A stretch of 64,000 nt of DNA from Aequorivita nionensis (GTDB lineage: Bacteria > Bacteroidota > Bacteroidia > Flavobacteriales > Flavobacteriaceae): contig NZ_CP130281.1 of assembly GCF_046352995.1 (NCBI RefSeq), forward strand, positions 960,289-1,024,288, read 5' to 3'. Below, in pieces: positions 3,595-58,207 of the stretch (position 1 is the stretch's first letter; each line of letters opens with the position of its first letter). The position numbers and the translations under genes were made by a program. The notes beneath the pieces are model-generated. The model saw only the letters and a list, made by a program, of their open reading frames with translations. It was not told the DNA's origin and ran no database searches.

Positions 3595-3753
3595 CTAGTG
3601 GCAACCACAATCCTTTCTGCCACATTTTGTTTTACCACCATCCAGCGTGCTGCTTGAATTTTGACGTGCTTCAAAAATAGGGTTCCAAACAAACTTTTTA
3701 ATTAAAAAGCCCGCTGCAATAGAAAATGTTATTAAAACTAATATTGTTTGCAT
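3595..3753 (-). CDS. Small (52 aa) membrane peptide with Cys-rich C-terminal tail, FeoB-associated Cys-rich membrane protein-like (copy 1)
   Basis: Not in the supplied track (<60 aa). Hand translation of the minus strand gives MQTILVLITFSIAAGFLIKKFVWNPIFEARQNSSSTLDGGKTKCGRKDCGCH*. It has one TM helix and a C-x-x-x-x-C-x-C-H tail, and lies downstream of feoB on the same strand. Confidence 0.45.
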   Translation of the reverse strand: MQTILVLITFSIAAGFLIKKFVWNPIFEARQNSSSTLDGGKTKCGRKDCGCH

Positions 3754-3835
3754 TGTGCAAAGATACCCCAAAGAAAATCAAGTTACAAATATTGCATTTC
3801 AGAAAAAAGGGTGACATGCTCCCAGTTTCATTACA

Positions 3836-3979
3836 TTAATGAAAACTACATTTGCTGCAGTCAGAATGATCTCCGGGTTTACTTCTTTTCTTTTCTGTTT
3901 GGAAGGGATTCCAAACAAACCTAGTTATAAGAAAGTACACTGCAAATAAGAATGTTATTAAGACAAGAAAAGTTTGCAT
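3836..3979 (-). CDS. Small (47 aa) membrane peptide with Cys-rich C-terminal tail, FeoB-associated Cys-rich membrane protein-like (copy 2)
   Basis: Hand translation gives MQTFLVLITFLFAVYFLITRFVWNPFQTEKKRSKPGDHSDCSKCSFH*. It starts 18 nt after the feoB stop and is a paralog of copy 1 (shared MQT-LVLITF...FVWNP and a Cys/His tail). Confidence 0.45.
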   Translation of the reverse strand: MQTFLVLITFLFAVYFLITRFVWNPFQTEKKRSKPGDHSDCSKCSFH

Positions 3980-3997
3980 ATCGATAAAAATTTTATT

Positions 3998-6097
3998 CTA
4001 TTTCAAAAATTGATAGGCAGCCAAAGCAACTACATAGGCAATCGCGCTCATCACGACCAACTGCCACATAGGCCATTTCCAACTATTTGTTTCTTTTTTA
4101 ACAATTGCTAGCGTACTCATACACTGCATTGCAAAAGCGTAAAAAAGCAATAGCGAAACCCCGCTCGCAAAATTAAAGAGCGGTCCTCCTAAAATAGGAT
4201 TTATCTCTGCCGCCATTCGGCTTTTTATGGTTTGTTCATCTTCGCTGCCAACGCTATAAATTGTTGCGAGGGTTCCTACAAATACTTCGCGTGCGGCAAA
4301 GGAGCTTACTAGAGCAATGCCTATTTTCCAGTCGTAGCCTAAAGGACTTACGGCAGGCTCTATGGCGTGGCCAATGTGACCAATGTATGAATGTTCCAGT
4401 TTATAGGAATCTATGTGCATCTCAATATCTTCTTCGGAAAGGTTTTGTGAAGCGTATTCCTTCTGAATAATTTCTTCTGCATTATTAAAATCACCAGGGC
4501 CATAAGATGCCAAAACCCAAAGAATAACAGAAATTGCGAGTATTATTTTTCCCGCACCAAAAACGAAAGCTTTTGTTTTTTCAACTACAGTAATCAATAC
4601 GTTTTTTGGAAGTGGAAGTTTGTAATTGGGCATTTCGACCACAAAAAAACTTTTGGAACGTATTTTAAGTATTTTATCCAACAGGTAGGCCGAAAAAATA
4701 GCCGCACCAAAGCCCAATATGTACATAAACATGAGCGTGAGGCCCTGCAAACTAAAAATACCGAGCACGCGCGTGTCGGGAATTACCAATGAAATAATTA
4801 TCAAATAAACTGGCAAACGCGCCGAACAGGTTGTAAAAGGCGTTACCAAAATTGTGATTAAACGCTCTTTCCAGTTTTCAATATTACGGGTCGCCATAAT
4901 TGCGGGAATGGCGCAGGCTGTTCCTGCTACCAAGGGCACAACGCTTTTTCCGCTGAGCCCAAAACGGCGCATAATACGGTCCATCAAAAACACTACCCGG
5001 CTCATATAGCCCGTTTCTTCCAAAATTGAAATAAAAAGAAAAAGAAAGGCAATCTGAGGAATGAAAATTACGATTCCGCCAAGCCCCGGAATAATTCCTT
5101 CGGCAATCAAATTCGTAAAATCTCCTACTGGAAGTGATGTTTTGGCCCATTCGCTGAGGGAAGCAAAAGTGCTATCAATAAAATCCATTGGGTAACTGCT
5201 CCAGTCAAAAATTGCCTGAAAAATTAAAAGTAGAATTGCGAAGAAAATCACATATCCCCAGATTTTATGGGTTAAAACACGATCCAAACGGCTTCTTAAA
5301 TCCTTTGCATTTGCAGTATCTATATGAAGTGTTTCCTTTAAAGTTTCATTGATAAATTGATAACGAGCTACGGTTTCCTTTTGCTGAAGCCGTTTAAGAT
5401 TGCTCACAGATTCAGTTTGAAAGGAAGCCACACCCTTCAACTCGTTTCTGTCCAATTTTCCGAAGTTTACATCTTGCGTTATCACTAGCCAAAGCTTGTA
5501 AAGATCTTGGTTTGGGAATGCTTTTCGCAAGCGGTCAAAATACTCTGGTGAAATGCCAGAGGCATTCAAGCTTGGTTTTGTGGAAAGGTGCTTATAATCT
5601 TCAATCAATTCCTTTAAATAATCAAAGCCCAAGTTTTTCCGCGAACTGATTAGGGCAATTTTTGTATTTAACTTTTCTTCAAGCAAAGGAACGTTCAGTG
5701 AAATTGCTTTGCGTTTCATCCTATCGGACATATTTATAGCGAGAATTGTGGGAATTCCCAAATCCTTTATTTGTGTGAAAAGCAAGAGGTTTCGCTTCAG
5801 ATTTTCAATATCGGCAACTACAATGGCTACATCGGGAAAATCTTTGTCGTTTTTATTCAGAAGTAGTTCAATAACAACATTTTCATCAACTGAGGAGGCG
5901 TTCAAACTATAGGTTCCGGGTAAATCCAGGACGTGAACTTTGCAGGCTCTGCCAAACTTGCAGGTGCCTTGTTTCTTTTCAACAGTAATTCCAGGATAGT
6001 TTCCCACTTTTTGGTTCAGTCCCGTAAGCCGGTTAAATACAGAGGTCTTTCCGGTATTTGGGTTTCCAATAAGTGCAACATTTATGTGTTTTGCCAT
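3998..6097 (-). CDS. feoB: Ferrous iron transporter FeoB (N-terminal G-protein domain plus polytopic membrane domain)
   Basis: G1 motif GNPNTGKTS, G-domain and GDI-like region, then about 8 TM helices; 699 aa, typical FeoB length. Confidence 0.95.
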   Translation of the reverse strand: MAKHINVALIGNPNTGKTSVFNRLTGLNQKVGNYPGITVEKKQGTCKFGRACKVHVLDLPGTYSLNASSVDENVVIELLLNKNDKDFPDVAIVVADIENLKRNLLLFTQIKDLGIPTILAINMSDRMKRKAISLNVPLLEEKLNTKIALISSRKNLGFDYLKELIEDYKHLSTKPSLNASGISPEYFDRLRKAFPNQDLYKLWLVITQDVNFGKLDRNELKGVASFQTESVSNLKRLQQKETVARYQFINETLKETLHIDTANAKDLRSRLDRVLTHKIWGYVIFFAILLLIFQAIFDWSSYPMDFIDSTFASLSEWAKTSLPVGDFTNLIAEGIIPGLGGIVIFIPQIAFLFLFISILEETGYMSRVVFLMDRIMRRFGLSGKSVVPLVAGTACAIPAIMATRNIENWKERLITILVTPFTTCSARLPVYLIIISLVIPDTRVLGIFSLQGLTLMFMYILGFGAAIFSAYLLDKILKIRSKSFFVVEMPNYKLPLPKNVLITVVEKTKAFVFGAGKIILAISVILWVLASYGPGDFNNAEEIIQKEYASQNLSEEDIEMHIDSYKLEHSYIGHIGHAIEPAVSPLGYDWKIGIALVSSFAAREVFVGTLATIYSVGSEDEQTIKSRMAAEINPILGGPLFNFASGVSLLLFYAFAMQCMSTLAIVKKETNSWKWPMWQLVVMSAIAYVVALAAYQFLK

Positions 6098-7159: not shown

Positions 7160-7342
7160 CGCGTTAAATTTTAGACTGAAAGAACATATTTGGGCGCAAA
7201 AATAAGTCCTAATAATATCAAAATGAATACATTTAACATCCTAATTTCACGTTGAAATTAACCCGTTGGTTTCTCCTGTCTTCGCCTTCAGAAATCGTTC
7301 CGTTGATTTTGGCAAAACAATAATTAAAAAAGACATTACACA

Positions 7343-9274
7343 ATGAAAGCATTAGTACTCCCCTGCTTATTTTTAATCTCCCTTTTTTCCTTTTCGCAAA
7401 GTTTTAGAACTGATGACATCAGTGAGGCCGAAGCCAAAGCCGCAACTGGTATGTTTACTACCCAACGCAATATGAATACTGGCAATTATGACTTAAAATA
7501 TGCCCGGTTGGAATTGAACGTTGATCCAACCCAAGCATTTATTAGCGGAAAGGTCACTTCACATTTTGAAGCGAAAGAAAACATGAATTCGGTTACATTT
7601 GAACTTGTGAACAACATGACCGTTTCTTCAGTAACCCAGCGCGGCACACCGCTTTCTTTCACACAAAACAATAATGATGAAGTTGTAATCACACTGCCCC
7701 AAATGCAAAACCAGGGTGTTTTAGATTCAATTTCCATCAGTTATTCCGGAAACCCTATAAGTTCTGGGTTTGGTTCTTTTGAAATAGACACCCACAATGG
7801 CGATCCCGTGATGTGGACACTTTCAGAGCCTTTTGGCGCTAAAGCTTGGTGGCCTTGCAAACAAGATTTGATAGATAAAATTGATTTATTGGATGTTTAT
7901 ATTACCACACCCCGTTTCAATCCTTCCAATGAAGAATATGTTGCAGTTTCCAATGGTTTAGAATTGAGCCAAACAATAAACGGTAGTAACAAAACAACCC
8001 ATTACAGACACCAACACCCCATTCCTGCCTATTTGGTTGCGATTGCCGTTACAAATTATACCGTTTACTCTCATACCGTAGATAACAACGGAAACCCTTT
8101 TGAAATCATAAACTACATTTATCCCGAAGATCTTAGCTATGCTCAACAACGAACCCCGGTTACAGTTGATATAATAAATTTATACGCCGATCTTTTTGAA
8201 CCCTATCCGTATGCAGATGAAAAATATGGTCACGCCCAATTTGGTTGGGGAGGTGGTATGGAACACACCACGGTTTCGTTTATGGGTGGGCTAAGCCGGG
8301 GACTTATTGCGCATGAACTTGGCCACCAATGGTTCGGTGATAAAGTTACCTGCGGGAGCTGGCAAGACGTTTGGCTTAACGAAGGTTTTGCCACCTATTT
8401 AGCTGGAACGATAATTGAGAATTTTGATTCAGCTTCAGATTTTAGAATTTATAAACAGGACAAGATATCTTCAATCACCCAAGAACCCGATGGATCCGTT
8501 TATGTTCCAGCGCAGGACACAATCTCTGTTAATAGAGTTTTCAGCAGTAGGCTTAGTTATAACAAAGGCTCTATGGTGTTGCATATGCTTCGCAAGAAAT
8601 TGGGTGATGCTGTTTTCTTTCAGGGTTTAAAAGATTATTTGGCAGATCCGGCACTCTCTTACGGCTATGCAAAAACCCCAGACCTCATCAGAAATATGGA
8701 AAACGCTAGTGGCCAAGACCTCTCAGAATTTTTTAACGATTGGATTTATGGGGAAGGATACCCACGTTTTACCATTCGATGGAACCAAGCCAGTGCGGGA
8801 AGCCTTAATGTGAAAATTAACCAGACCCAAAGCCATCCTTCGGTATCTTATTTTGATGTGCCAGTTCCATTAAGACTTCACGGAACACAGGGTGAAACAC
8901 TGGACATCGTTTTGGACAATACTTTTGATGGGCAGATTTTTCAACCTTCAGTCCCTTTTACCGTAAACGGCGTTCAGTTTGATCCAGAATACGATATTAT
9001 TTCCAAAAACAACCAAGTACTTTTGGGCACAGACGACTTGGCATTTGATCAGCAACTGGTTTTATATCCAAATCCAACCACGGGCTTTATCAATCTTCAC
9101 AAACCAGATGCACTGCAAGTGAACCAAGTTCGTATTTATAATACTTTGGGGCAAATGCTTTATTCTGAGGCCTATTCAGAAACGGTTGATGTTTCAATGT
9201 TTTCGAAAGGTATTTTGTTCTTTCAAATGGAAACTGCAAAAGGAGTTATCAACAAAACAATTGTGAAAGAATAG
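7343..9274 (+). CDS. M1-family zinc aminopeptidase (aminopeptidase N-like) with T9SS C-terminal sorting domain
   Basis: GGMEH (GxMEN-type) motif and HELGHQWFG...WLNEGFATY zinc-binding motifs, a signal peptide, and a C-terminal ~80 aa Por/T9SS sorting domain (LVLYPNPTTGFINL...). Confidence 0.85.
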   Translation: MKALVLPCLFLISLFSFSQSFRTDDISEAEAKAATGMFTTQRNMNTGNYDLKYARLELNVDPTQAFISGKVTSHFEAKENMNSVTFELVNNMTVSSVTQRGTPLSFTQNNNDEVVITLPQMQNQGVLDSISISYSGNPISSGFGSFEIDTHNGDPVMWTLSEPFGAKAWWPCKQDLIDKIDLLDVYITTPRFNPSNEEYVAVSNGLELSQTINGSNKTTHYRHQHPIPAYLVAIAVTNYTVYSHTVDNNGNPFEIINYIYPEDLSYAQQRTPVTVDIINLYADLFEPYPYADEKYGHAQFGWGGGMEHTTVSFMGGLSRGLIAHELGHQWFGDKVTCGSWQDVWLNEGFATYLAGTIIENFDSASDFRIYKQDKISSITQEPDGSVYVPAQDTISVNRVFSSRLSYNKGSMVLHMLRKKLGDAVFFQGLKDYLADPALSYGYAKTPDLIRNMENASGQDLSEFFNDWIYGEGYPRFTIRWNQASAGSLNVKINQTQSHPSVSYFDVPVPLRLHGTQGETLDIVLDNTFDGQIFQPSVPFTVNGVQFDPEYDIISKNNQVLLGTDDLAFDQQLVLYPNPTTGFINLHKPDALQVNQVRIYNTLGQMLYSEAYSETVDVSMFSKGILFFQMETAKGVINKTIVKE

Positions 9275-52783: not shown

Positions 52784-52811
52784 CGAGCGGCAAAGATAAT
52801 AATTGTAAAGT

Positions 52812-53258
52812 TTATTTGGGTGCAATAGCCCATTCGCCAGCATCAACCAATTTTAATCGTACTTCTGGATCATTTTTATCTCCTTTGTCACCAATTATAA
52901 TAGAGTGAGACCTATTGTTAGGAATTCCTAATCTGGGAGGTAAGTGCTGAAGCGGATCATGAATTACTTTTTGAAGAGGAATAATTTTACGAACTTTAAA
53001 AGTTTCAAAAGCATAGATAAAAAAATCAGATGAATTCTTAAACTCCGTTGTACCAAATTTATATTGCAAACCTATTCTTTCTCTACTTTCTTCAGCGGAA
53101 GAATACTTGTCCCAATCTGTGGAAAGATTATCTCCTGTTTTTGGGGTATTATAAAATGCACTTGGGTTAGGAGAATTATCTTTCTTAGAAAGGTATCCTT
53201 TATGGACATTACAAAATAAAAAACAATTATCTGGTATTTCTTCTGTTTTCCAAATCAT
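52812..53258 (-). CDS. Hypothetical protein C of a low-GC three-gene cassette (148 aa from the first ATG, no recognisable domain)
   Basis: Open frame; the listed start 53282 is TTG and the first ATG is at 53258, giving MIWKTEEIP.... The gene is roughly 25-30% GC. Its start lies 2 nt after the stop of gene B, and its stop is 28 nt upstream of the probable mfd start. Confidence 0.45.
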   Translation of the reverse strand: MIWKTEEIPDNCFLFCNVHKGYLSKKDNSPNPSAFYNTPKTGDNLSTDWDKYSSAEESRERIGLQYKFGTTEFKNSSDFFIYAFETFKVRKIIPLQKVIHDPLQHLPPRLGIPNNRSHSIIIGDKGDKNDPEVRLKLVDAGEWAIAPK

Positions 53259-53260
53259 TA

Positions 53261-53851
53261 TTAACCAAGTTTCAGCATCCAAGTTGCTAAAAATTCTTGT
53301 ACATTTTCAATTTCAATTTGTCCTTTTATACTGTTAATTCCAGCAAGTTGATCTCCATAATAAACAGCTGAGTTTTCATTAATATGGATAAGTAACCTTG
53401 AATTATTATTTCTCCATAAAATATCAAGATTGCCATCAGGAGTTGGGCTAATTTCTGGTAATGCGATAACTATGTTGAAAGTGTCTTTAATAAAATTATA
53501 GTAATTATTAAGAAAATCAAAGCATTTTTGATAAACAATTGGAGAAATACTCATTGCTCCTTGACCATCCCAATTATCTTCTAATTTCAAGAGATTTTTA
53601 TTCAATTCTTTTAAATCTTCTATGGGAGATTTGATTTTATATATATCGGAAGCTAAGAATTCCAAAAACTCTAAAGTGCTTTTTTCCTTTATTCTGGGTT
53701 TTGTAAATAGAGTTTGTTTAACATCCTGATTAAATCTAGATTGTTTGACATATTGATTTTGTAAAACATCCGAAATAATATGAGTTGTATCCTTTTGTGG
53801 AAAAGCCGATACACAATTCAAATAAACTGTATTATTTGTTTTAGCAAACAT
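53261..53851 (-). CDS. Hypothetical protein B of the low-GC three-gene cassette (196 aa, no recognisable domain)
   Basis: Its start ATG overlaps the stop TAA of gene A by 1 nt (TAATG), implying translational coupling. It is AT-rich. Confidence 0.45.
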   Translation of the reverse strand: MFAKTNNTVYLNCVSAFPQKDTTHIISDVLQNQYVKQSRFNQDVKQTLFTKPRIKEKSTLEFLEFLASDIYKIKSPIEDLKELNKNLLKLEDNWDGQGAMSISPIVYQKCFDFLNNYYNFIKDTFNIVIALPEISPTPDGNLDILWRNNNSRLLIHINENSAVYYGDQLAGINSIKGQIEIENVQEFLATWMLKLG

Positions 53852-54522
53852 TAATCTTTATCATTGGTTAAAAACTTCAAATCGTTAAAACTTGAGTCTT
53901 TTCTTATTAAATTTTCTTTTTGAATAGCCCTTTCAATTGTGTTTTTTAATTCTTCTAAGTCATTATGATCTAAAGCCAAGAAGACACTTATTTTATCATT
54001 GGAAGCCAAATAGTCTAATCTTAAATTATGAACTATAACAGCATTTTTTATTCCTTCATCTTTCAATTCATCATCAAATACAATTCTTAAATCTGAAATT
54101 ATTCTAGATGATATATAATTTTTTTCATTTTCTCTTAAAATTTGATGCCCTTTCATTGTTTGAATAGTAGGTCCATCAATTTTTTCAAAAAGCTTAAGAT
54201 TTTTCTTAAGATTTTTTATATCAATATCTTTAATCTGCTCTTCAATAGAATCAATTAAATCTTGTATATCTCGTGAAGTGTTTATGTTGTCTTTCTGTTT
54301 AAAACTTAAAAGACTTAACGCGCTTTTAATAATATTTGTTAGATCATTCTTTTCTAATTGTATAGAATCAGTAAGTGACTCTGCAATTTTAGAATCATTT
54401 AATCCAAAATCAATTGAACTCAATTTTTTAGCTATCTGTTTTACTTGCTTTTGATTGAGTTTACTGATTAAAATAAAACCAGGCTTAAAAATATCAGGAA
54501 TAAGATATCTAGACATTGACAA
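53851..54522 (-). CDS. Hypothetical protein A of the low-GC three-gene cassette (223 aa, predicted all-helical/coiled-coil, no recognisable domain)
   Basis: First gene of the cassette. The 95-bp AT-rich leader is divergent from the flavoprotein gene. Confidence 0.45.
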   Translation of the reverse strand: MSMSRYLIPDIFKPGFILISKLNQKQVKQIAKKLSSIDFGLNDSKIAESLTDSIQLEKNDLTNIIKSALSLLSFKQKDNINTSRDIQDLIDSIEEQIKDIDIKNLKKNLKLFEKIDGPTIQTMKGHQILRENEKNYISSRIISDLRIVFDDELKDEGIKNAVIVHNLRLDYLASNDKISVFLALDHNDLEELKNTIERAIQKENLIRKDSSFNDLKFLTNDKD

Positions 54523-54659
54523 AAATTTGTTGGGTAAATATACAAATATCTTTGGATTAAGAAATGTTATTAGGCTTTCATTAAGGTTTCAAAGCTAGTT
54601 ATTCCAACTTTATCATTTTGCTAACACAAATAACTTGGGCGTTTCTCTATTTTCGGTTT

Positions 54660-56012
54660 ATGGCTAGAAAAGAATACGATGTTTTTGTAATAGGAACCGG
54701 AACCGCCGGAAAAACTGTGGCGTTTGACTGTGCTGAAGAAGGAATGAAAGTGGCGATTGCGGATAACCGAGAATTTGGCGGAACCTGCCCAAATAGAGGC
54801 TGCGACCCGAAAAAAGTTTTGGTGGGAATTACGGAAGCTATGCAGCTTTCAGAAAATTTAAAGGGAAAGGGAATCGTTTCCGTTCCAAAAATAAGTTGGA
54901 AAGATCTTCAAAAATTTAAATCAACTTTTACCGATGCTGTACCAGCTTCCACCGAAAAAAAATTGAAGGAAGCCGGAATTGAAATGTTTCACCAATCGCC
55001 CAAATTTTTGAATGAAAACACACTTTCGGTAGAGGGAAAATCGGTGAAAGCGAAGAAAATTGTAATCGCTACCGGGCAAAAACCGATGGAACTGAAAATT
55101 CCCGGGAGGGAACATTTAAAGGTGAGCGATGACTTTTTGGAATTGGAAGAATTGCCCGAAAGTATCGTTTTTGTTGGCGCCGGTTACATTGGGATGGAGT
55201 TTGCGCATATTGCCGCGCGCTGCAGCGCAAAAGTTACCATTGTTGAATTTGGCCCTCGACCGCTCGCACCATTTGAAACCGATATCGTTTCGCACCTTAC
55301 AAAAGCTTCGGAAGAACTTGGGATTAAATTTATTTTCAACGCAAAGGTTTCCGAAGTGGAAAAACTTCAGAAAAACTTTCGTGTTTCCTTCGAAAAGAAT
55401 GGTAAAACCGAATCCGTTGACGCCCGAATGGTTTTCAATACCGCCGGCCGTGTGCCATCCATCGATGAACTGGATTTGGAAAAGGGAAATGTCGCGTTTG
55501 AAAAAAGCGGGATTTCGGTGAATGAATTCCTTCAAAATACAACCAATAAATCGGTCTATGCCTGTGGCGATGTTTCGGCAAGTGGGGCGTTACCATTGAC
55601 GCCAACATCTTCGCAGGAAGCGCGGATTGTTTCGTTGAATATCAGAAATGGAAACCACACAAAAATGGATTTTCCGCCAGTACCTTCTGTGGTCTTTACC
55701 ATTCCGCAGCTTGCTTCCATCGGTTTAACTGAGGCAGAGGCAAAGGAAAAAGGTTATGATTTTGTAGTGGAATATAAAAGCGTCCCGAAATGGTTCAATG
55801 CAAAACGTATTAATGACGACGTTTACGCCTATAAAACGATCGTGGACAAAAAACGAAATATTGTTTTGGGCGCGCATATAATCGCTTCCGAAGCTGGAGA
55901 AATGATCAATCTATTCGTGCTGGCAATGTGTGGAAAACTGACTACCGAAAATATTAAAGCCATGATTTTTGCATACCCTACTTGGGGAAATGATATTAAG
56001 GGAATGGTTTAA
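54660..56012 (+). CDS. Class I pyridine nucleotide-disulfide oxidoreductase (glutathione/mercuric reductase/Lpd-like flavoprotein)
   Basis: FAD motif VFVIGTGTAG, redox-active CxxxxC (GGTCPNRGCDPKK), an NAD motif GAGYIG, and a C-terminal dimerisation domain with HPT (AYPTWGND). The probable start is MARKEYD. Confidence 0.75.
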   Translation: MARKEYDVFVIGTGTAGKTVAFDCAEEGMKVAIADNREFGGTCPNRGCDPKKVLVGITEAMQLSENLKGKGIVSVPKISWKDLQKFKSTFTDAVPASTEKKLKEAGIEMFHQSPKFLNENTLSVEGKSVKAKKIVIATGQKPMELKIPGREHLKVSDDFLELEELPESIVFVGAGYIGMEFAHIAARCSAKVTIVEFGPRPLAPFETDIVSHLTKASEELGIKFIFNAKVSEVEKLQKNFRVSFEKNGKTESVDARMVFNTAGRVPSIDELDLEKGNVAFEKSGISVNEFLQNTTNKSVYACGDVSASGALPLTPTSSQEARIVSLNIRNGNHTKMDFPPVPSVVFTIPQLASIGLTEAEAKEKGYDFVVEYKSVPKWFNAKRINDDVYAYKTIVDKKRNIVLGAHIIASEAGEMINLFVLAMCGKLTTENIKAMIFAYPTWGNDIKGMV

Positions 56013-56854: not shown

Positions 56855-57496
56855 TCAATTTTTCGAAACACAAATCACTTCCCCTTCAACAATGGCATAT
56901 ATTTCGTCCATTTCAGAAGGTTTTAAGATGTGTTTTCCCGTAAAGTTACCAAAAGCAGGGAGAATAAGACTGTTAAGCGTTTTATAAAAACACGAAAACC
57001 GGAGGTATTGCCTCCCAACCCCCTTCATCAGAATGCCGGGGTGCACGTGACCACAAAAATTGAAAGTGCCTTTAATCTCGGTGGGATGGTGGGTCAACAA
57101 AAAACTGTCGAGCAACAATTCGTCAAAAACCTTAACTCCTATTTCTTCGTATAAATACTTTGGAATAATATCGTGATTGCCCGAAATCAGGACTATTTCC
57201 GCCTTTGTGTATTCCGTCCACTTTTCAAAATCTTGCCATTCCTCGTTTAATTTACTGTGGAAAAGATCGCCCAAAAAACAAATAATTTCAGGTTGAAATT
57301 GATTGCTAATCTCTGTAAGTTTTTCAAGATTTTTAAACGCCGCGTTTGCGGGAACAGGCGCCCCGTGTTTTCTGAAATGTGTCACTTTTCCCAAATGAAC
57401 ATCGGCAATCAATAACATTTTGTTGTCTTCCCAAAAGATAGCTCCGCTGGGGTGAAGAATAAAAAAGTTGTTTTTTATTTGAATATTTTGGATCAA
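56855..57496 (-). CDS. pdeM: Ligase-associated DNA damage response metallophosphoesterase PdeM
   Basis: Calcineurin-like phosphoesterase motifs (ADVHLGK, GDLFH, GNHD, GHVHP) in the same minus-strand gene string as the ligase, helicase and exonuclease. Confidence 0.8.
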   Translation of the reverse strand: MIQNIQIKNNFFILHPSGAIFWEDNKMLLIADVHLGKVTHFRKHGAPVPANAAFKNLEKLTEISNQFQPEIICFLGDLFHSKLNEEWQDFEKWTEYTKAEIVLISGNHDIIPKYLYEEIGVKVFDELLLDSFLLTHHPTEIKGTFNFCGHVHPGILMKGVGRQYLRFSCFYKTLNSLILPAFGNFTGKHILKPSEMDEIYAIVEGEVICVSKN

Positions 57497-57583
57497 CTAT
57501 TTGAATTTTGACAATTGTTCAATACATTTTTTAAACGAAAAAAATTCTACAATATATTGGTAATCAGGAAACTATTTAAAAAT

Positions 57584-58207
57584 TTAATTTTTTTTGTTTC
57601 GTATTTGTCCCACAGTTATTATTTCAGATTTTCGATCTTCATGCGTTTTTAATATAACAAAATACCATTCTCTTGAACCTTCAACGTATTCCGCAAAAAA
57701 TAAATCGTCTTTTTTGTGTGCTTTAATTGCAGACTCAAAAGAAGCAACCATTCTGCCTGAAGGAAACCAGCCTAAATCGCCTCCATTTTTTGCAGACGGA
57801 TCGTCAGAATATTCTTTTGCCAATTCTGAAAAGGGAACGTTAGCCGTATATTTATTTTTGATTTCATCTCTCAAAGAATCAATTTTATTCTTTGGCATTT
57901 TACTTCCGTTCAAGTATATATAGCTTACCCTAAATTCTAAAATTGAATCTTTTTGAAGCAGCTTTTCCGTAATAGTTTGTGATGCATTTTTAATTTCCCT
58001 CAATCCATTTGTATCATAATGCAAAGTTTTTGAATCATCGGGAGAATACGTAATTTGAGTAATTTCCCAATTAGGATGAGCTTTTTTTAAAGAATCCAAT
58101 TGATGCAGAAAAGTTAGTTTTTTTAATGCTCGTGTAGCTTCTTCATCGCTTTGTCCAAATGAGGTTGTGCAAAAAAACAGTGCGATTATTATCCAACTAA
58201 ATTTCAT
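57584..58207 (-). CDS. Secreted PpiC/parvulin-type peptidyl-prolyl cis-trans isomerase
   Basis: Signal peptide plus a parvulin domain (FSELAKEYSDDPSAKNGGDLGWFPSGRMVASFE). Confidence 0.7.
   Translation of the reverse strand: MKFSWIIIALFFCTTSFGQSDEEATRALKKLTFLHQLDSLKKAHPNWEITQITYSPDDSKTLHYDTNGLREIKNASQTITEKLLQKDSILEFRVSYIYLNGSKMPKNKIDSLRDEIKNKYTANVPFSELAKEYSDDPSAKNGGDLGWFPSGRMVASFESAIKAHKKDDLFFAEYVEGSREWYFVILKTHEDRKSEIITVGQIRNKKN

Follow-up and report, generated by a model that had tools for sequence, protein, structure and literature searches.

What is the small group of genes that separates mfd from a flavoprotein gene in the marine flavobacterium Aequorivita nionensis, where did it come from, and what might its products do? 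The group lies within a 64,000-nt stretch of DNA that was analysed as a whole and is hereafter called the window. It had been described in an initial annotation as a compositionally foreign cassette of three coupled genes of the defence or toxin-antitoxin type, encoding proteins without a recognisable motif that could not be assigned to any known defence family from sequence alone.

A recent insertion beside mfd

The cassette comprises the following elements (window coordinates):
52802-54604, no strand assigned: inserted segment of 1,803 nt, without a counterpart in related genomes, in place of approx. 29 nt that originally lay between mfd and the flavoprotein gene
53851-54516, minus strand: gene A, bacterial COMMD-like protein of 221 aa, homologue of PDB 9q6a
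53261-53851, minus strand: gene B, 196 aa overall, made up of an N-terminal extension and a C-terminal domain
53627-53851, minus strand: N-terminal extension of gene B (aa 1-75), predicted to be disordered and little conserved; proposed docking tail for a ring of A
53261-53626, minus strand: conserved C-terminal alpha+beta domain of gene B (aa 76-196); proposed antidote to C
52812-53258, minus strand: gene C, 148 aa, predicted fold of the ADP-ribosyltransferase (ART) superfamily; proposed NAD+-using toxin

Three minus-strand ORFs of 223, 196, and 148 aa had been reported. All three are present, although the first encodes 221 aa, as the longer figure counts from an upstream TTG (54522). The start of A was set at ATG 54516 because it fits the N-termini of homologous proteins, which share the pattern M-x-x-[YF]-x-I-P. 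The translational coupling holds as described: genes A and B overlap by 1 nt in the sequence TAATG, and B and C are joined through TAAtaATG. The C stop codon is 28 nt from the mfd ATG (52783), and the flanking genes are those originally named, i.e., mfd (with TRCF domains) and a divergently oriented Pyr_redox_2 flavoprotein gene. Homologues of A, B, and C with 29-70% identity, which keep the same lengths and order, are found in more than 10 unrelated contigs; by this measure of sequence conservation, the three ORFs are confirmed as real genes.

The cassette is indeed AT-rich, with a GC content of 27.9% vs. 37.9% for the window (24.6% for A, 27.9% for B, and 32.7% for C), whereas the value of approx. 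50% given earlier for the adjacent mfd was too high: this gene has 41% GC overall and a local maximum of 49%. No other 1.7-kb stretch within the 64,000 nt has a lower GC content (z = -3.7). Moreover, GC3 of the cassette is 16-20%, compared with 36.7 +/- 6.7% for 39 long ORFs of the window.

Comparison with 80 related Flavobacteriaceae species directly shows horizontal acquisition, as had been supposed, and marks the insertion as recent. The cassette is a clean insertion in A. nionensis and is missing from all 80 species, none of which carries a homologue of A, B, or C at the corresponding locus. In 74 of the 80 genomes, each representing one species, mfd is found upstream of the flavoprotein gene and in divergent orientation to it; in most of the closest Aequorivita species, 102-103 nt separate the two genes. 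In particular, blastn homology to three relatives (L035, L021, and L010; 93-97% identity) breaks off at 52801 and picks up at 54605, which sets the length of the insertion at 1,803 nt. A transposon or integron-like event was ruled out, as the insertion has neither terminal direct or inverted repeats nor an integrase or transposase inside it. An insertion hot-spot, suggested by larger gaps in other genera, was likewise rejected: those gaps carry DoxX and SDR core genes of normal GC content. The exception is Salegentibacter maritimus (L086), in which the same site carries a ParE toxin and an antitoxin-like partner.

Two promoter-like boxes were noted at the ends of the insertion:
54590-54597, minus strand: TAGCTTTG, candidate cassette promoter, matching TAnnTTTG, the -7 consensus of Bacteroidota, and lying 74 nt before the start codon of A
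52791-52798, minus strand: TATCTTTG, ancestral -7-like box that was retained, 8 nt ahead of the start codon of mfd, also a TAnnTTTG pattern match

As a pattern match, TAGCTTTG is a weak candidate for the cassette promoter because TAnnTTTG is not enriched in the window; a sigma-70 promoter scan is uninformative for Bacteroidota. The box TATCTTTG is kept in six relatives (L035, L021, L010, L017, L023, and L011). The insertion starts 3 nt upstream of it and displaced the ancestral -33 TTTG of mfd. Since no terminator-like site was found between C and mfd, transcription may possibly read through from the cassette into mfd.

Properties of the three gene products

Searches of Pfam, NCBIfam, and PHROGs with A, B, and C returned nothing significant. 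Thus, the earlier statement that the proteins contain no recognisable motif stands for these collections but not for solved structures, among which A has a clear homologue, nor for PADLOC, in which B has a weak match. The view that the proteins are unassignable does not survive for A, which falls in a recently described bacterial COMMD-like family. Its family profile aligns with PDB chain 9q6a_A ('COMMD-like protein MBK5214510') with E=6.5e-44 over positions 3-220 of 222, and the single sequence does so with E=1.8e-21 over aa 3-216. The A proteins of three further loci (L090, L094, and L097) match MBK5214510 with E values of 1e-34 to 7e-40. Judged by these alignments, gene A is a full-length homologue (28% identity) within the bacterial COMMD-like family. 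The alignment with 9q6a covers both the HN and COMM domains without large gaps and, with limits taken from it, places a helical HN domain at approx. aa 1-120 and a COMM domain at approx. aa 120-216; the latter is aligned as three strands (RIISDLRIVF, AVIVHNLRLDY, and KISVFLALD) and a long helix.

To judge from the alignment, MBK5214510 (from a bacterium of the Flavobacteriaceae; PDB 9q6a, 9q6c, and 9q6d) has the same layout, with the HN domain at the N-terminus and the COMM domain at the C-terminus; it assembles into rings of eight or ten subunits (Liu et al., Nat Commun 2026, PMC13392464). Two 2026 papers have solved structures of such bacterial rings, and both call the prokaryotic function unknown, as Liu et al. 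(PMC13392464) state for COMMD-like proteins. The gene neighbourhoods presented in PMC13392464 are those of Myxococcota, Chlamydia, and Haloarchaea only, with a context resembling a type VI secretion system (T6SS) in Myxococcota and not a toxin-antitoxin one; the words toxin, defence, phage, and operon are absent from its text. In the cassette, A is encoded by the first gene of a conserved trio that includes a predicted ART-fold protein. In eukaryotes, the HN domains of COMMD proteins bind the N-terminal regions of partner proteins.

In gene B, residues 1-75 have pLDDT values of 49-68, and the acidic C-terminal alpha+beta domain carries the motifs WDxxGA, PDGxIDxxW, and YYGD. By exhaustive phmmer search, the B family comprises 1,603 representative clusters, without a Pfam model, and the long-tailed form accounts for approx. 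87% of complete top matches. The N-terminal extension occurs in all 11 loci that contain A and is absent in the four that do not (L002/L003, L004, L093, and L096, each consisting of a short B and C only); for these 11 long-B and four short-B loci, the association between A and the long form is significant (Fisher exact p ~0.0007). B lacks the kind of DNA-binding domain that type II antitoxins usually carry, and its fold matches are generic; the B and C profiles found nothing among PDB sequences. Short B-like genes without C are present in a 636-kb phage record (L098), a 310-kb viral contig (L100), and a 47-kb viral contig (L102); a solitary viral B of this kind would be expected if phages carried the antidote. 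In tblastn searches, B had no match in plasmids, and A and C had none in plasmids or phages.

The predicted structure of gene C resembles ADP-ribosyltransferase toxins and has the split sheet of ARTs, so that by predicted fold C would belong to the ART superfamily; a Foldseek search of C against the PDB gave no significant match. An invariant histidine (H19) lies on strand 1 and an invariant serine (S46) on strand 2, and strand 5 has H118 in place of glutamate, followed by E132 in a helix. Neither of the classical triads (H-Y-E and R-S-E) can be clearly recognised. The arginine of the family 'RVH' motif, found beside the invariant histidine in 14 of 16 family members, is asparagine (N17) in the window copy, which could therefore be weakened; all other invariant residues are retained. 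C is not markedly basic, and pI values across its family range from 5.1 to 9.2. A word-indexed homologue search, in which A and B found only themselves and C found 12 matches, understates all three families, of which the locus contexts and the phmmer search revealed many more members, and a metagenome scan with C added one new locus only.

Recurrence of the trio and comparison with known systems

Eleven loci carry the A-B-C trio (the window, L001, L005, L006, L007, L089, L090, L094, L097, L099, and L101), on contigs of 29-51% GC. The genes are spaced by -22 to +28 nt in the nine trios measured. The interval between B and C ranges from -22 to +11 nt over nine loci, with B upstream in all of them, and each B-family gene inspected in cellular contigs is followed by a C-family gene. 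In L094, the trio stands beside a type I restriction-modification (RM) system and a 1,600-aa helicase, and in L005, beside an Eco57I-type RM methylase (type IIG). HATPase_c_3, an IS1595 transposase, and an integrase are encoded near the trio of L097, and that of L101 lies in a prophage, with a phage portal gene at a distance of 1.6 kb. A nucleotidyltransferase toxin-antitoxin-like pair and a weak Uma2 match lie near the two-gene locus L002. Altogether, RM systems, prophage genes, an integrase, or a toxin-antitoxin pair are found nearby in 5-6 of approx. 15 contexts, most of them on short contigs.

The closest named relative is PDC-M32, a two-gene PADLOC phage-defence candidate found by 'guilt-by-embedding' (Payne et al., bioRxiv 10.1101/2024.01.29.577857), whose components M32A and M32B are approx. 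375 and 123 aa long. The C-terminal domain of window B matches the C-terminal part of PDC-M32A with E=1.3e-5 over profile positions 262-332 of 375, and members of the B family do so with E values of 5e-6 to 6e-5. In the C family, the proteins of two distant relatives, L007 and L090, match the N-terminal part of PDC-M32B (E values of 1.5e-3 and 0.027); window A and C have no match among the PADLOC models (for C at E<=1). Like B-C, PDC-M32 consists of two adjacent genes near defence systems, but as far as the models show, it has no COMMD-like component. Membership in PDC-M32 would call for matches to both models over most of their length, whereas those found are weak and span approx. 70-90 of 375 positions; they hint at a distant relationship between the module and this candidate.

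Among toxin-antitoxin systems, DarTG and RES-Xre (including ParST, MbcTA, and NatRT) employ ART toxins. B-C has neither the DarT/DUF4433 toxin and macrodomain antitoxin of the former nor the RES-domain toxin and Xre/HTH antitoxin of the latter. Its layout of small, adjacent, co-directional, and coupled genes with a putative antidote upstream is that of type II systems, from which it departs in that B lacks a DNA-binding domain. In the tripartite toxin-antitoxin-chaperone (TAC) and omega-epsilon-zeta systems, the antitoxin is unable to function alone and is under the control of a third protein; in TAC, a disordered extension makes the antitoxin dependent on a chaperone. The strict co-occurrence of the B tail with A resembles these systems, in logic only: A is neither SecB-like nor a ribbon-helix-helix (RHH) repressor, the tail of B is N-terminal and not C-terminal, and the gene order differs.

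Proposed mechanism and alternative readings

We consider the chances about even that the cassette represents an undescribed type of toxin-antidote module, made up of three genes, gained by horizontal transfer, and built around a COMMD-like scaffold. We infer a toxin-antitoxin or defence function because C has an ART-like predicted fold and is constantly and tightly adjacent to B, and because the genes recur in RM, integrase, transposase, and prophage contexts and show weak matches to PDC-M32. In the proposed mechanism, C would be a small NAD+-using enzyme of the ART superfamily and a toxic effector that ADP-ribosylates a macromolecule or consumes NAD+. B, translationally coupled just upstream of C, would be its antidote, with the acidic C-terminal domain binding and blocking C. 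A might assemble into an octameric or decameric ring and serve as a scaffold or chaperone that grips B by its disordered N-terminal tail; eukaryotic COMMD rings, which hold extended N-terminal regions of CCDC22 and CCDC93, provide the model for this contact. Upon phage infection or loss of the cassette, B would be released or destroyed, and free C would arrest the cell, resulting in abortive infection or addiction. Several observations speak against this mechanism: the indistinct catalytic triad of C and the missing 'RVH' arginine of the window copy, the lack of a type II-like DNA-binding domain and the generic fold matches of B, the variable pI of C, the weak and partial PADLOC matches, and the T6SS-like setting published for Myxococcota.

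It is a more tentative suggestion that at least one large clade of bacterial COMMD-like rings, including relatives of the solved one, is dedicated to a widespread conflict system in which the ring docks the disordered tail of an antidote and so gates an ART-fold toxin. If so, prokaryotic immunity or addiction machinery would provide a precedent for the eukaryotic Commander architecture, in which a ring holds an extended partner peptide, and the solitary B-like genes of huge phages would be anti-defence antidotes. Such systems are likely to be abundant, as the long-tailed B is common and has so far always been found with a COMMD-like gene. The conserved trio provides a first functional lead for bacterial COMMD-like proteins and makes their role testable, with the two-gene versions, which lack both the ring gene and the B tail, as a natural comparison. 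Confirmation would extend the known toxin-antitoxin and defence systems by a new one with an ART toxin, give a function to the PDC-M32 candidate lineage, and bear on the origin of the eukaryotic COMMD ring.

The same genes could be read as purely selfish: B-C would then be a type II-like addiction pair without a part in phage defence, and A would be a stabilising chaperone as in TAC. The cassette is small, tightly coupled, and alone beside housekeeping genes, with no other defence gene in the insertion, and S. maritimus carries a canonical ParE pair at the same spot, all of which fits addiction. We nevertheless hold this reading to be unlikely, in view of the several trios that adjoin RM systems or sit in prophages, the distant resemblance to a candidate defence system that was predicted by embedding, and the solitary B homologues in phage genomes, although none of these counter-observations is decisive. 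It is less probable still that C is no toxin but an NAD+-dependent enzyme of the Tpt1/KptA type, with nucleic-acid phosphates as substrate and a part in RNA or DNA repair, capping, or modification, and with A and B as assembly or specificity factors. With 148 aa, of which 95 residues align to a 179-residue chain, C comprises the ART lobe only and lacks the N-terminal RNA-binding lobe of Tpt1/KptA; it has no Pfam match at E<=1, including to PTS_2-RNA, and no match to a PDB sequence. Moreover, a patchy distribution, foreign GC content, absence from close relatives, and location in prophages and RM islands would be unusual for a repair function.

The T6SS-like neighbourhood in Myxococcota raises the idea of an interbacterial effector-immunity pair, with C as toxin, B as immunity protein, and A as an adaptor for loading onto a secretion apparatus. 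This is very improbable: no secretion gene is present in the contexts examined, trios lie in prophages and beside RM genes, no PAAR, Rhs, or other delivery domain is evident in C, and the antidote gene stands before the toxin gene. Finally, hardly any weight is given to the view that the cassette is mere passenger DNA of recent arrival, with genes that no longer function in A. nionensis. The unameliorated composition and the loss of the 'RVH' arginine from window C would suit such a passenger; against this, the three ORFs are intact, their products have native lengths, the coupling between them is preserved, and C keeps every invariant residue other than that arginine.

Anatomy and chromosomal insertion of the cassette

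The window is from Aequorivita nionensis, and proteins of this species recorded as hypothetical match B and C at 100%. The cassette consists of three minus-strand genes, A, B and C, situated between two genes identified by Pfam:

54660-56012, plus strand, pyridine-nucleotide-disulphide oxidoreductase (flavoprotein) gene, divergent from mfd
54516-53851, minus strand, gene A, 221 aa from ATG
53851-53261, minus strand, gene B, 196 aa
53258-52812, minus strand, gene C, 148 aa
49430-52783, minus strand, mfd

All three ORFs of the initial annotation were recovered, B and C at their original lengths, whereas A, read there as 223 aa, is two residues shorter because the N-termini of its homologues fit the ATG and not the upstream TTG. 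As had been described, the junctions are coupled (TAATG between A and B, a 1-nt overlap, and TAAtaATG between B and C), and 28 nt separate the C stop codon from the mfd ATG. With 27.9% GC versus 37.9% for the window, the cassette is the lowest 1.7-kb stretch of the window (z = -3.7), and its GC3 is 16-20% versus 36.7 +/- 6.7% for 39 long ORFs; its striking AT-richness therefore stands when composition is computed, but the contrast with mfd had been overstated, as that gene has 41% GC and not approx. 50%. A second local GC minimum (27%), at 57400-57700, covers the 3' end of a PPIase-like gene and the adjacent intergenic region.

Using the flavoprotein as a probe and one genome per species, 80 Flavobacteriaceae loci were collected, with Aequorivita species at the top and 8 kb on either side where the contig allows. 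In 74 of them mfd and the flavoprotein gene are divergently oriented, with mfd on the upstream side, and within this extent none of the 80 contains a homologue of A, B or C. The gap between the two genes is 1,876 nt in the window versus 102-103 nt in most of the closest Aequorivita species, which keep mfd and the flavoprotein gene adjacent without the cassette. Nucleotide homology to the closest relatives (93-97%) stops at 52801 and restarts at 54605, and the relatives have approx. 29 nt where the window has 52802-54604; the insertion thus measures 1,803 nt. It is clean, has neither terminal repeats nor a recombinase gene, and, together with the low GC content, bears out the earlier view of the cassette as inserted foreign DNA. 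A conserved TATCTTTG box precedes the mfd start; the insertion point lies 3 nt upstream of this box, and the ancestral upstream TTTG is displaced. There is no terminator-like site between C and mfd, and, judging from the sequence, part of the transcription of mfd may now originate in the cassette.

In several other genera, larger gaps at this position hold genes of normal GC content, namely those for a DoxX-like membrane protein (~141 aa) and an SDR oxidoreductase (~260 aa); such loci include L024, L038, L046, L048, L070, L079 and L085, among others, and some have the DoxX gene only. These are lineage-specific core genes, not a mobile island. The exception is Salegentibacter maritimus (locus L086, ~7270-8000), in which the gap encodes a 96-aa ParE toxin (27 bits; Pfam cutoff 23) and a neighbouring 78-aa protein whose match to an addiction-module antitoxin is weak (18.3 bits, under the cutoff of 23.3). 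The segment has 33% GC versus 37.9% in the locus, and a TA module appears to have been inserted independently at this position. On a metagenomic flavobacterial contig (L001, 2770-3230), the three genes lie downstream of mfd and not upstream as in the window; the mfd stop is followed by a GC-rich palindromic segment of ~165 nt, then by a repeat of the mfd 3' end in degenerate form and then by the cassette, which suggests that this end of mfd was rearranged or served as an integration site. Elsewhere in the window, a metallophosphoesterase gene (56858-57496, minus strand, 213 aa) lies near one for an Lhr-type helicase (58239-60695, minus strand, 819 aa; WH_Lhr, DEAD_assoc), an arrangement resembling the ligase-associated DNA-damage-response pair (PdeM, Lhr-core).

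Recurrence of the trio, the COMMD-like protein A and the tail of B

An indexed homologue search returned 12 homologues of C and only self-hits for A and B, whose relatives were seen as partners on the C-bearing contigs. A-like, B-like and C-like genes occur in this order at loci L001, L005, L006, L007, L089 and L090-92 (A ~220 aa, B 196-247 aa, C 135-156 aa), while L002/L003, L004, L093 and L096 have only C and a short B (142-155 aa). In pairwise comparison, A proteins are 22-46% identical, the C-terminal domains of B 28-47% and C proteins 29-70%. When phmmer was run exhaustively with B, it gave 1,603 representative clusters, of which 341 reach E<=1e-10; in every cluster the match covers B residues ~75-195 and lies at the C-terminus of 80-307-aa proteins. 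Neighbours were examined for six representatives: P0015 and P0020 led to the trios L089 and L090, P0040 and P0075 to two new trios (L094 and L097, with C genes of 193-198 aa overlooked by the indexed search), and P0163 (L095) and P0018 (L096) are each followed by a C-family gene. The trio is also found on two IMG/VR viral contigs (L099 and L101), giving 11 loci on contigs of 29-51% GC, with intergene spacings of -22 to +28 nt in the nine trios measured.

Gene A had been considered unassignable; instead, it matches the 'COMMD-like protein MBK5214510' (PDB 9q6a) over its whole length when five A proteins are combined in a profile (E=6.5e-44) and also as a single sequence (E=1.8e-21), which on homology places it in the bacterial COMMD-like family. 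MBK5214510, from a Flavobacteriaceae bacterium, forms octameric and decameric rings, as seen by crystallography and cryo-EM (PMC13392464). That paper repeatedly calls the function of prokaryotic COMMD-like proteins unknown, confines its analysis of gene neighbourhoods to Myxococcota (T6SS-like), Chlamydia and Haloarchaea, and does not contain the words toxin, defence, phage or operon. In the literature collection searched, no paper linked COMM/COMMD proteins with toxin-antitoxin, anti-phage or conflict systems. That the first cassette gene encodes a COMMD-like protein, putatively ring-forming, is the key addition to the earlier observation.

Disorder is predicted for residues 1-75 of B and, with high confidence (pLDDT 96-98), an alpha+beta domain for residues 76-196. 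Pfam has no model for this domain, the PDB holds no sequence match to it, and its structural neighbours are all generic. A long N-terminal extension is present on B at all 11 loci with A (196-296 aa in the nine non-viral trios; 201-237 aa, as ORF length, in L099 and L101), and B is short at all four loci without A (142-155 aa; Fisher exact p ~0.0007). Of 118 complete B-family representatives, 103 are long and 15 are short. The COMMD ring of eukaryotic Commander binds N-terminal regions of CCDC22 and CCDC93 through its peripheral HN domains. Given this precedent and the correlation between A and long B, B would most simply be read as docking by its tail on a ring of A.

The predicted fold of C and a candidate toxin-antidote mechanism

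The predicted model of C most resembles ADP-ribosyltransferase (ART)-fold proteins: RES toxin (5.7), DarT (5.7 and 5.3), AvrPphF (5.4), Tse2 (5.4), Tne2 (4.9) and TreTu (4.7), followed by MbcT, ParT, pertussis, cholera-like and diphtheria toxins, PARPs, SidE and others. Since Foldseek returned nothing significant for the model and sequence methods tie C to no known family, membership of the ART superfamily is proposed with moderate confidence and at the fold level; C is not a member of the DarT, RES or Tpt1 families. Ten residues are invariant in 16 diverse C-family members (H19, F35, S46, W49, H100, P102, H118, E132, R134 and K136), and they match neither the classical H-Y-E nor the R-S-E triad. 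In 14 of the 16, an Arg precedes invariant His19 by two or three residues; the window copy has Asn in place of the Arg of 'RVH' (residues 16-20, 'CNVHK'; 53198-53212) and might have altered or reduced activity.

The initial impression that the three proteins lack recognisable motifs holds for Pfam, NCBIfam and PHROGs, but not for solved structures, among which A has its match, and PADLOC was the one library with a signal for the cassette families. In PDC-M32A, the C-terminal part is matched by proteins of the B family (E 1.3e-5 to 5e-6), and two C-family proteins match PDC-M32B (E 1.5e-3 and 0.027). B-C is only a remote relative of this two-gene candidate; the 145 PDC systems are candidates derived from genes that lie within BREX, DISARM and type I RM loci (10.1101/2024.01.29.577857).

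We regard it as about an even bet that the cassette is a tripartite toxin-antidote module, which may serve either phage defence or plain addiction. C would be an NAD+-using ART-fold effector, probably toxic, and B its antidote, neutralising it through the C-terminal domain; A would assemble as a COMMD-like ring and, by way of the B tail, hold or stabilise B, and release or loss of B would free C. B-C resembles a type II TA pair, but without a DNA-binding antitoxin, and the likeness to toxin-antitoxin-chaperone systems is one of logic only, in that a third protein is tied to a disordered antitoxin extension. The same TA-like pair could serve addiction only, with no defence role, which we find unlikely. 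Less probable still is a Tpt1-like nucleic-acid-modifying enzyme with helpers. We give little credence to a secreted effector-immunity pair with a loading adaptor, in which A would take the adaptor's place, and slightly less to an inert passenger. The interpretation of the cassette as a foreign, undescribed TA- or defence-like module is supported, and we read it as a candidate toxin-antidote or defence module of the ART-toxin kind, in which the COMMD-like component is one not linked to such modules before. Through this cassette, the function of bacterial COMMD-like proteins, an openly stated question, becomes directly testable.

Genomic contexts and viral relatives

Contexts of cassette loci and of solitary short B-like genes

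L094: HsdS and HsdR directly upstream of the trio; 1,600-aa DEAD/UvrD helicase downstream
L005: Eco57I-type methylase with TaqI_C domain upstream
L097: HATPase_c_3 protein, IS1595 transposase and phage integrase in the vicinity
L101: SPP1-type portal gene 1.6 kb away
L002: adjoins a nucleotidyltransferase pair (DUF2204/DUF6036) and a gene weakly matching Uma2
L090: weak Mrr-like match upstream (E=0.029)
L098, 3932-4309: solitary B-like gene, 636-kb phage record LR756504
L100, 4007-4369: solitary B-like gene, 310-kb IMG/VR viral contig
L102, 3965-4306: solitary B-like gene, 47-kb IMG/VR viral contig

At L094, a 156-aa ORF (3724-4194) with no Pfam or PADLOC match lies between the HsdR gene and the COMMD-like gene and may be an extra component of that island. 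The three solitary viral genes encode proteins of 113-125 aa, and no A-like or C-like neighbours were detected beside them; suggestively, they may be phage-borne antidotes to a host toxin or anti-defence genes. On a further viral contig (L103, 3962-4940), the gene for a B-like protein of 200 aa overlaps an ORF of 128 aa. BLAST and Pfam give no match for this ORF, but it shows C-like motifs (EHTP, FHSE and a strand containing Ser), and the two may be a very divergent B-C pair.
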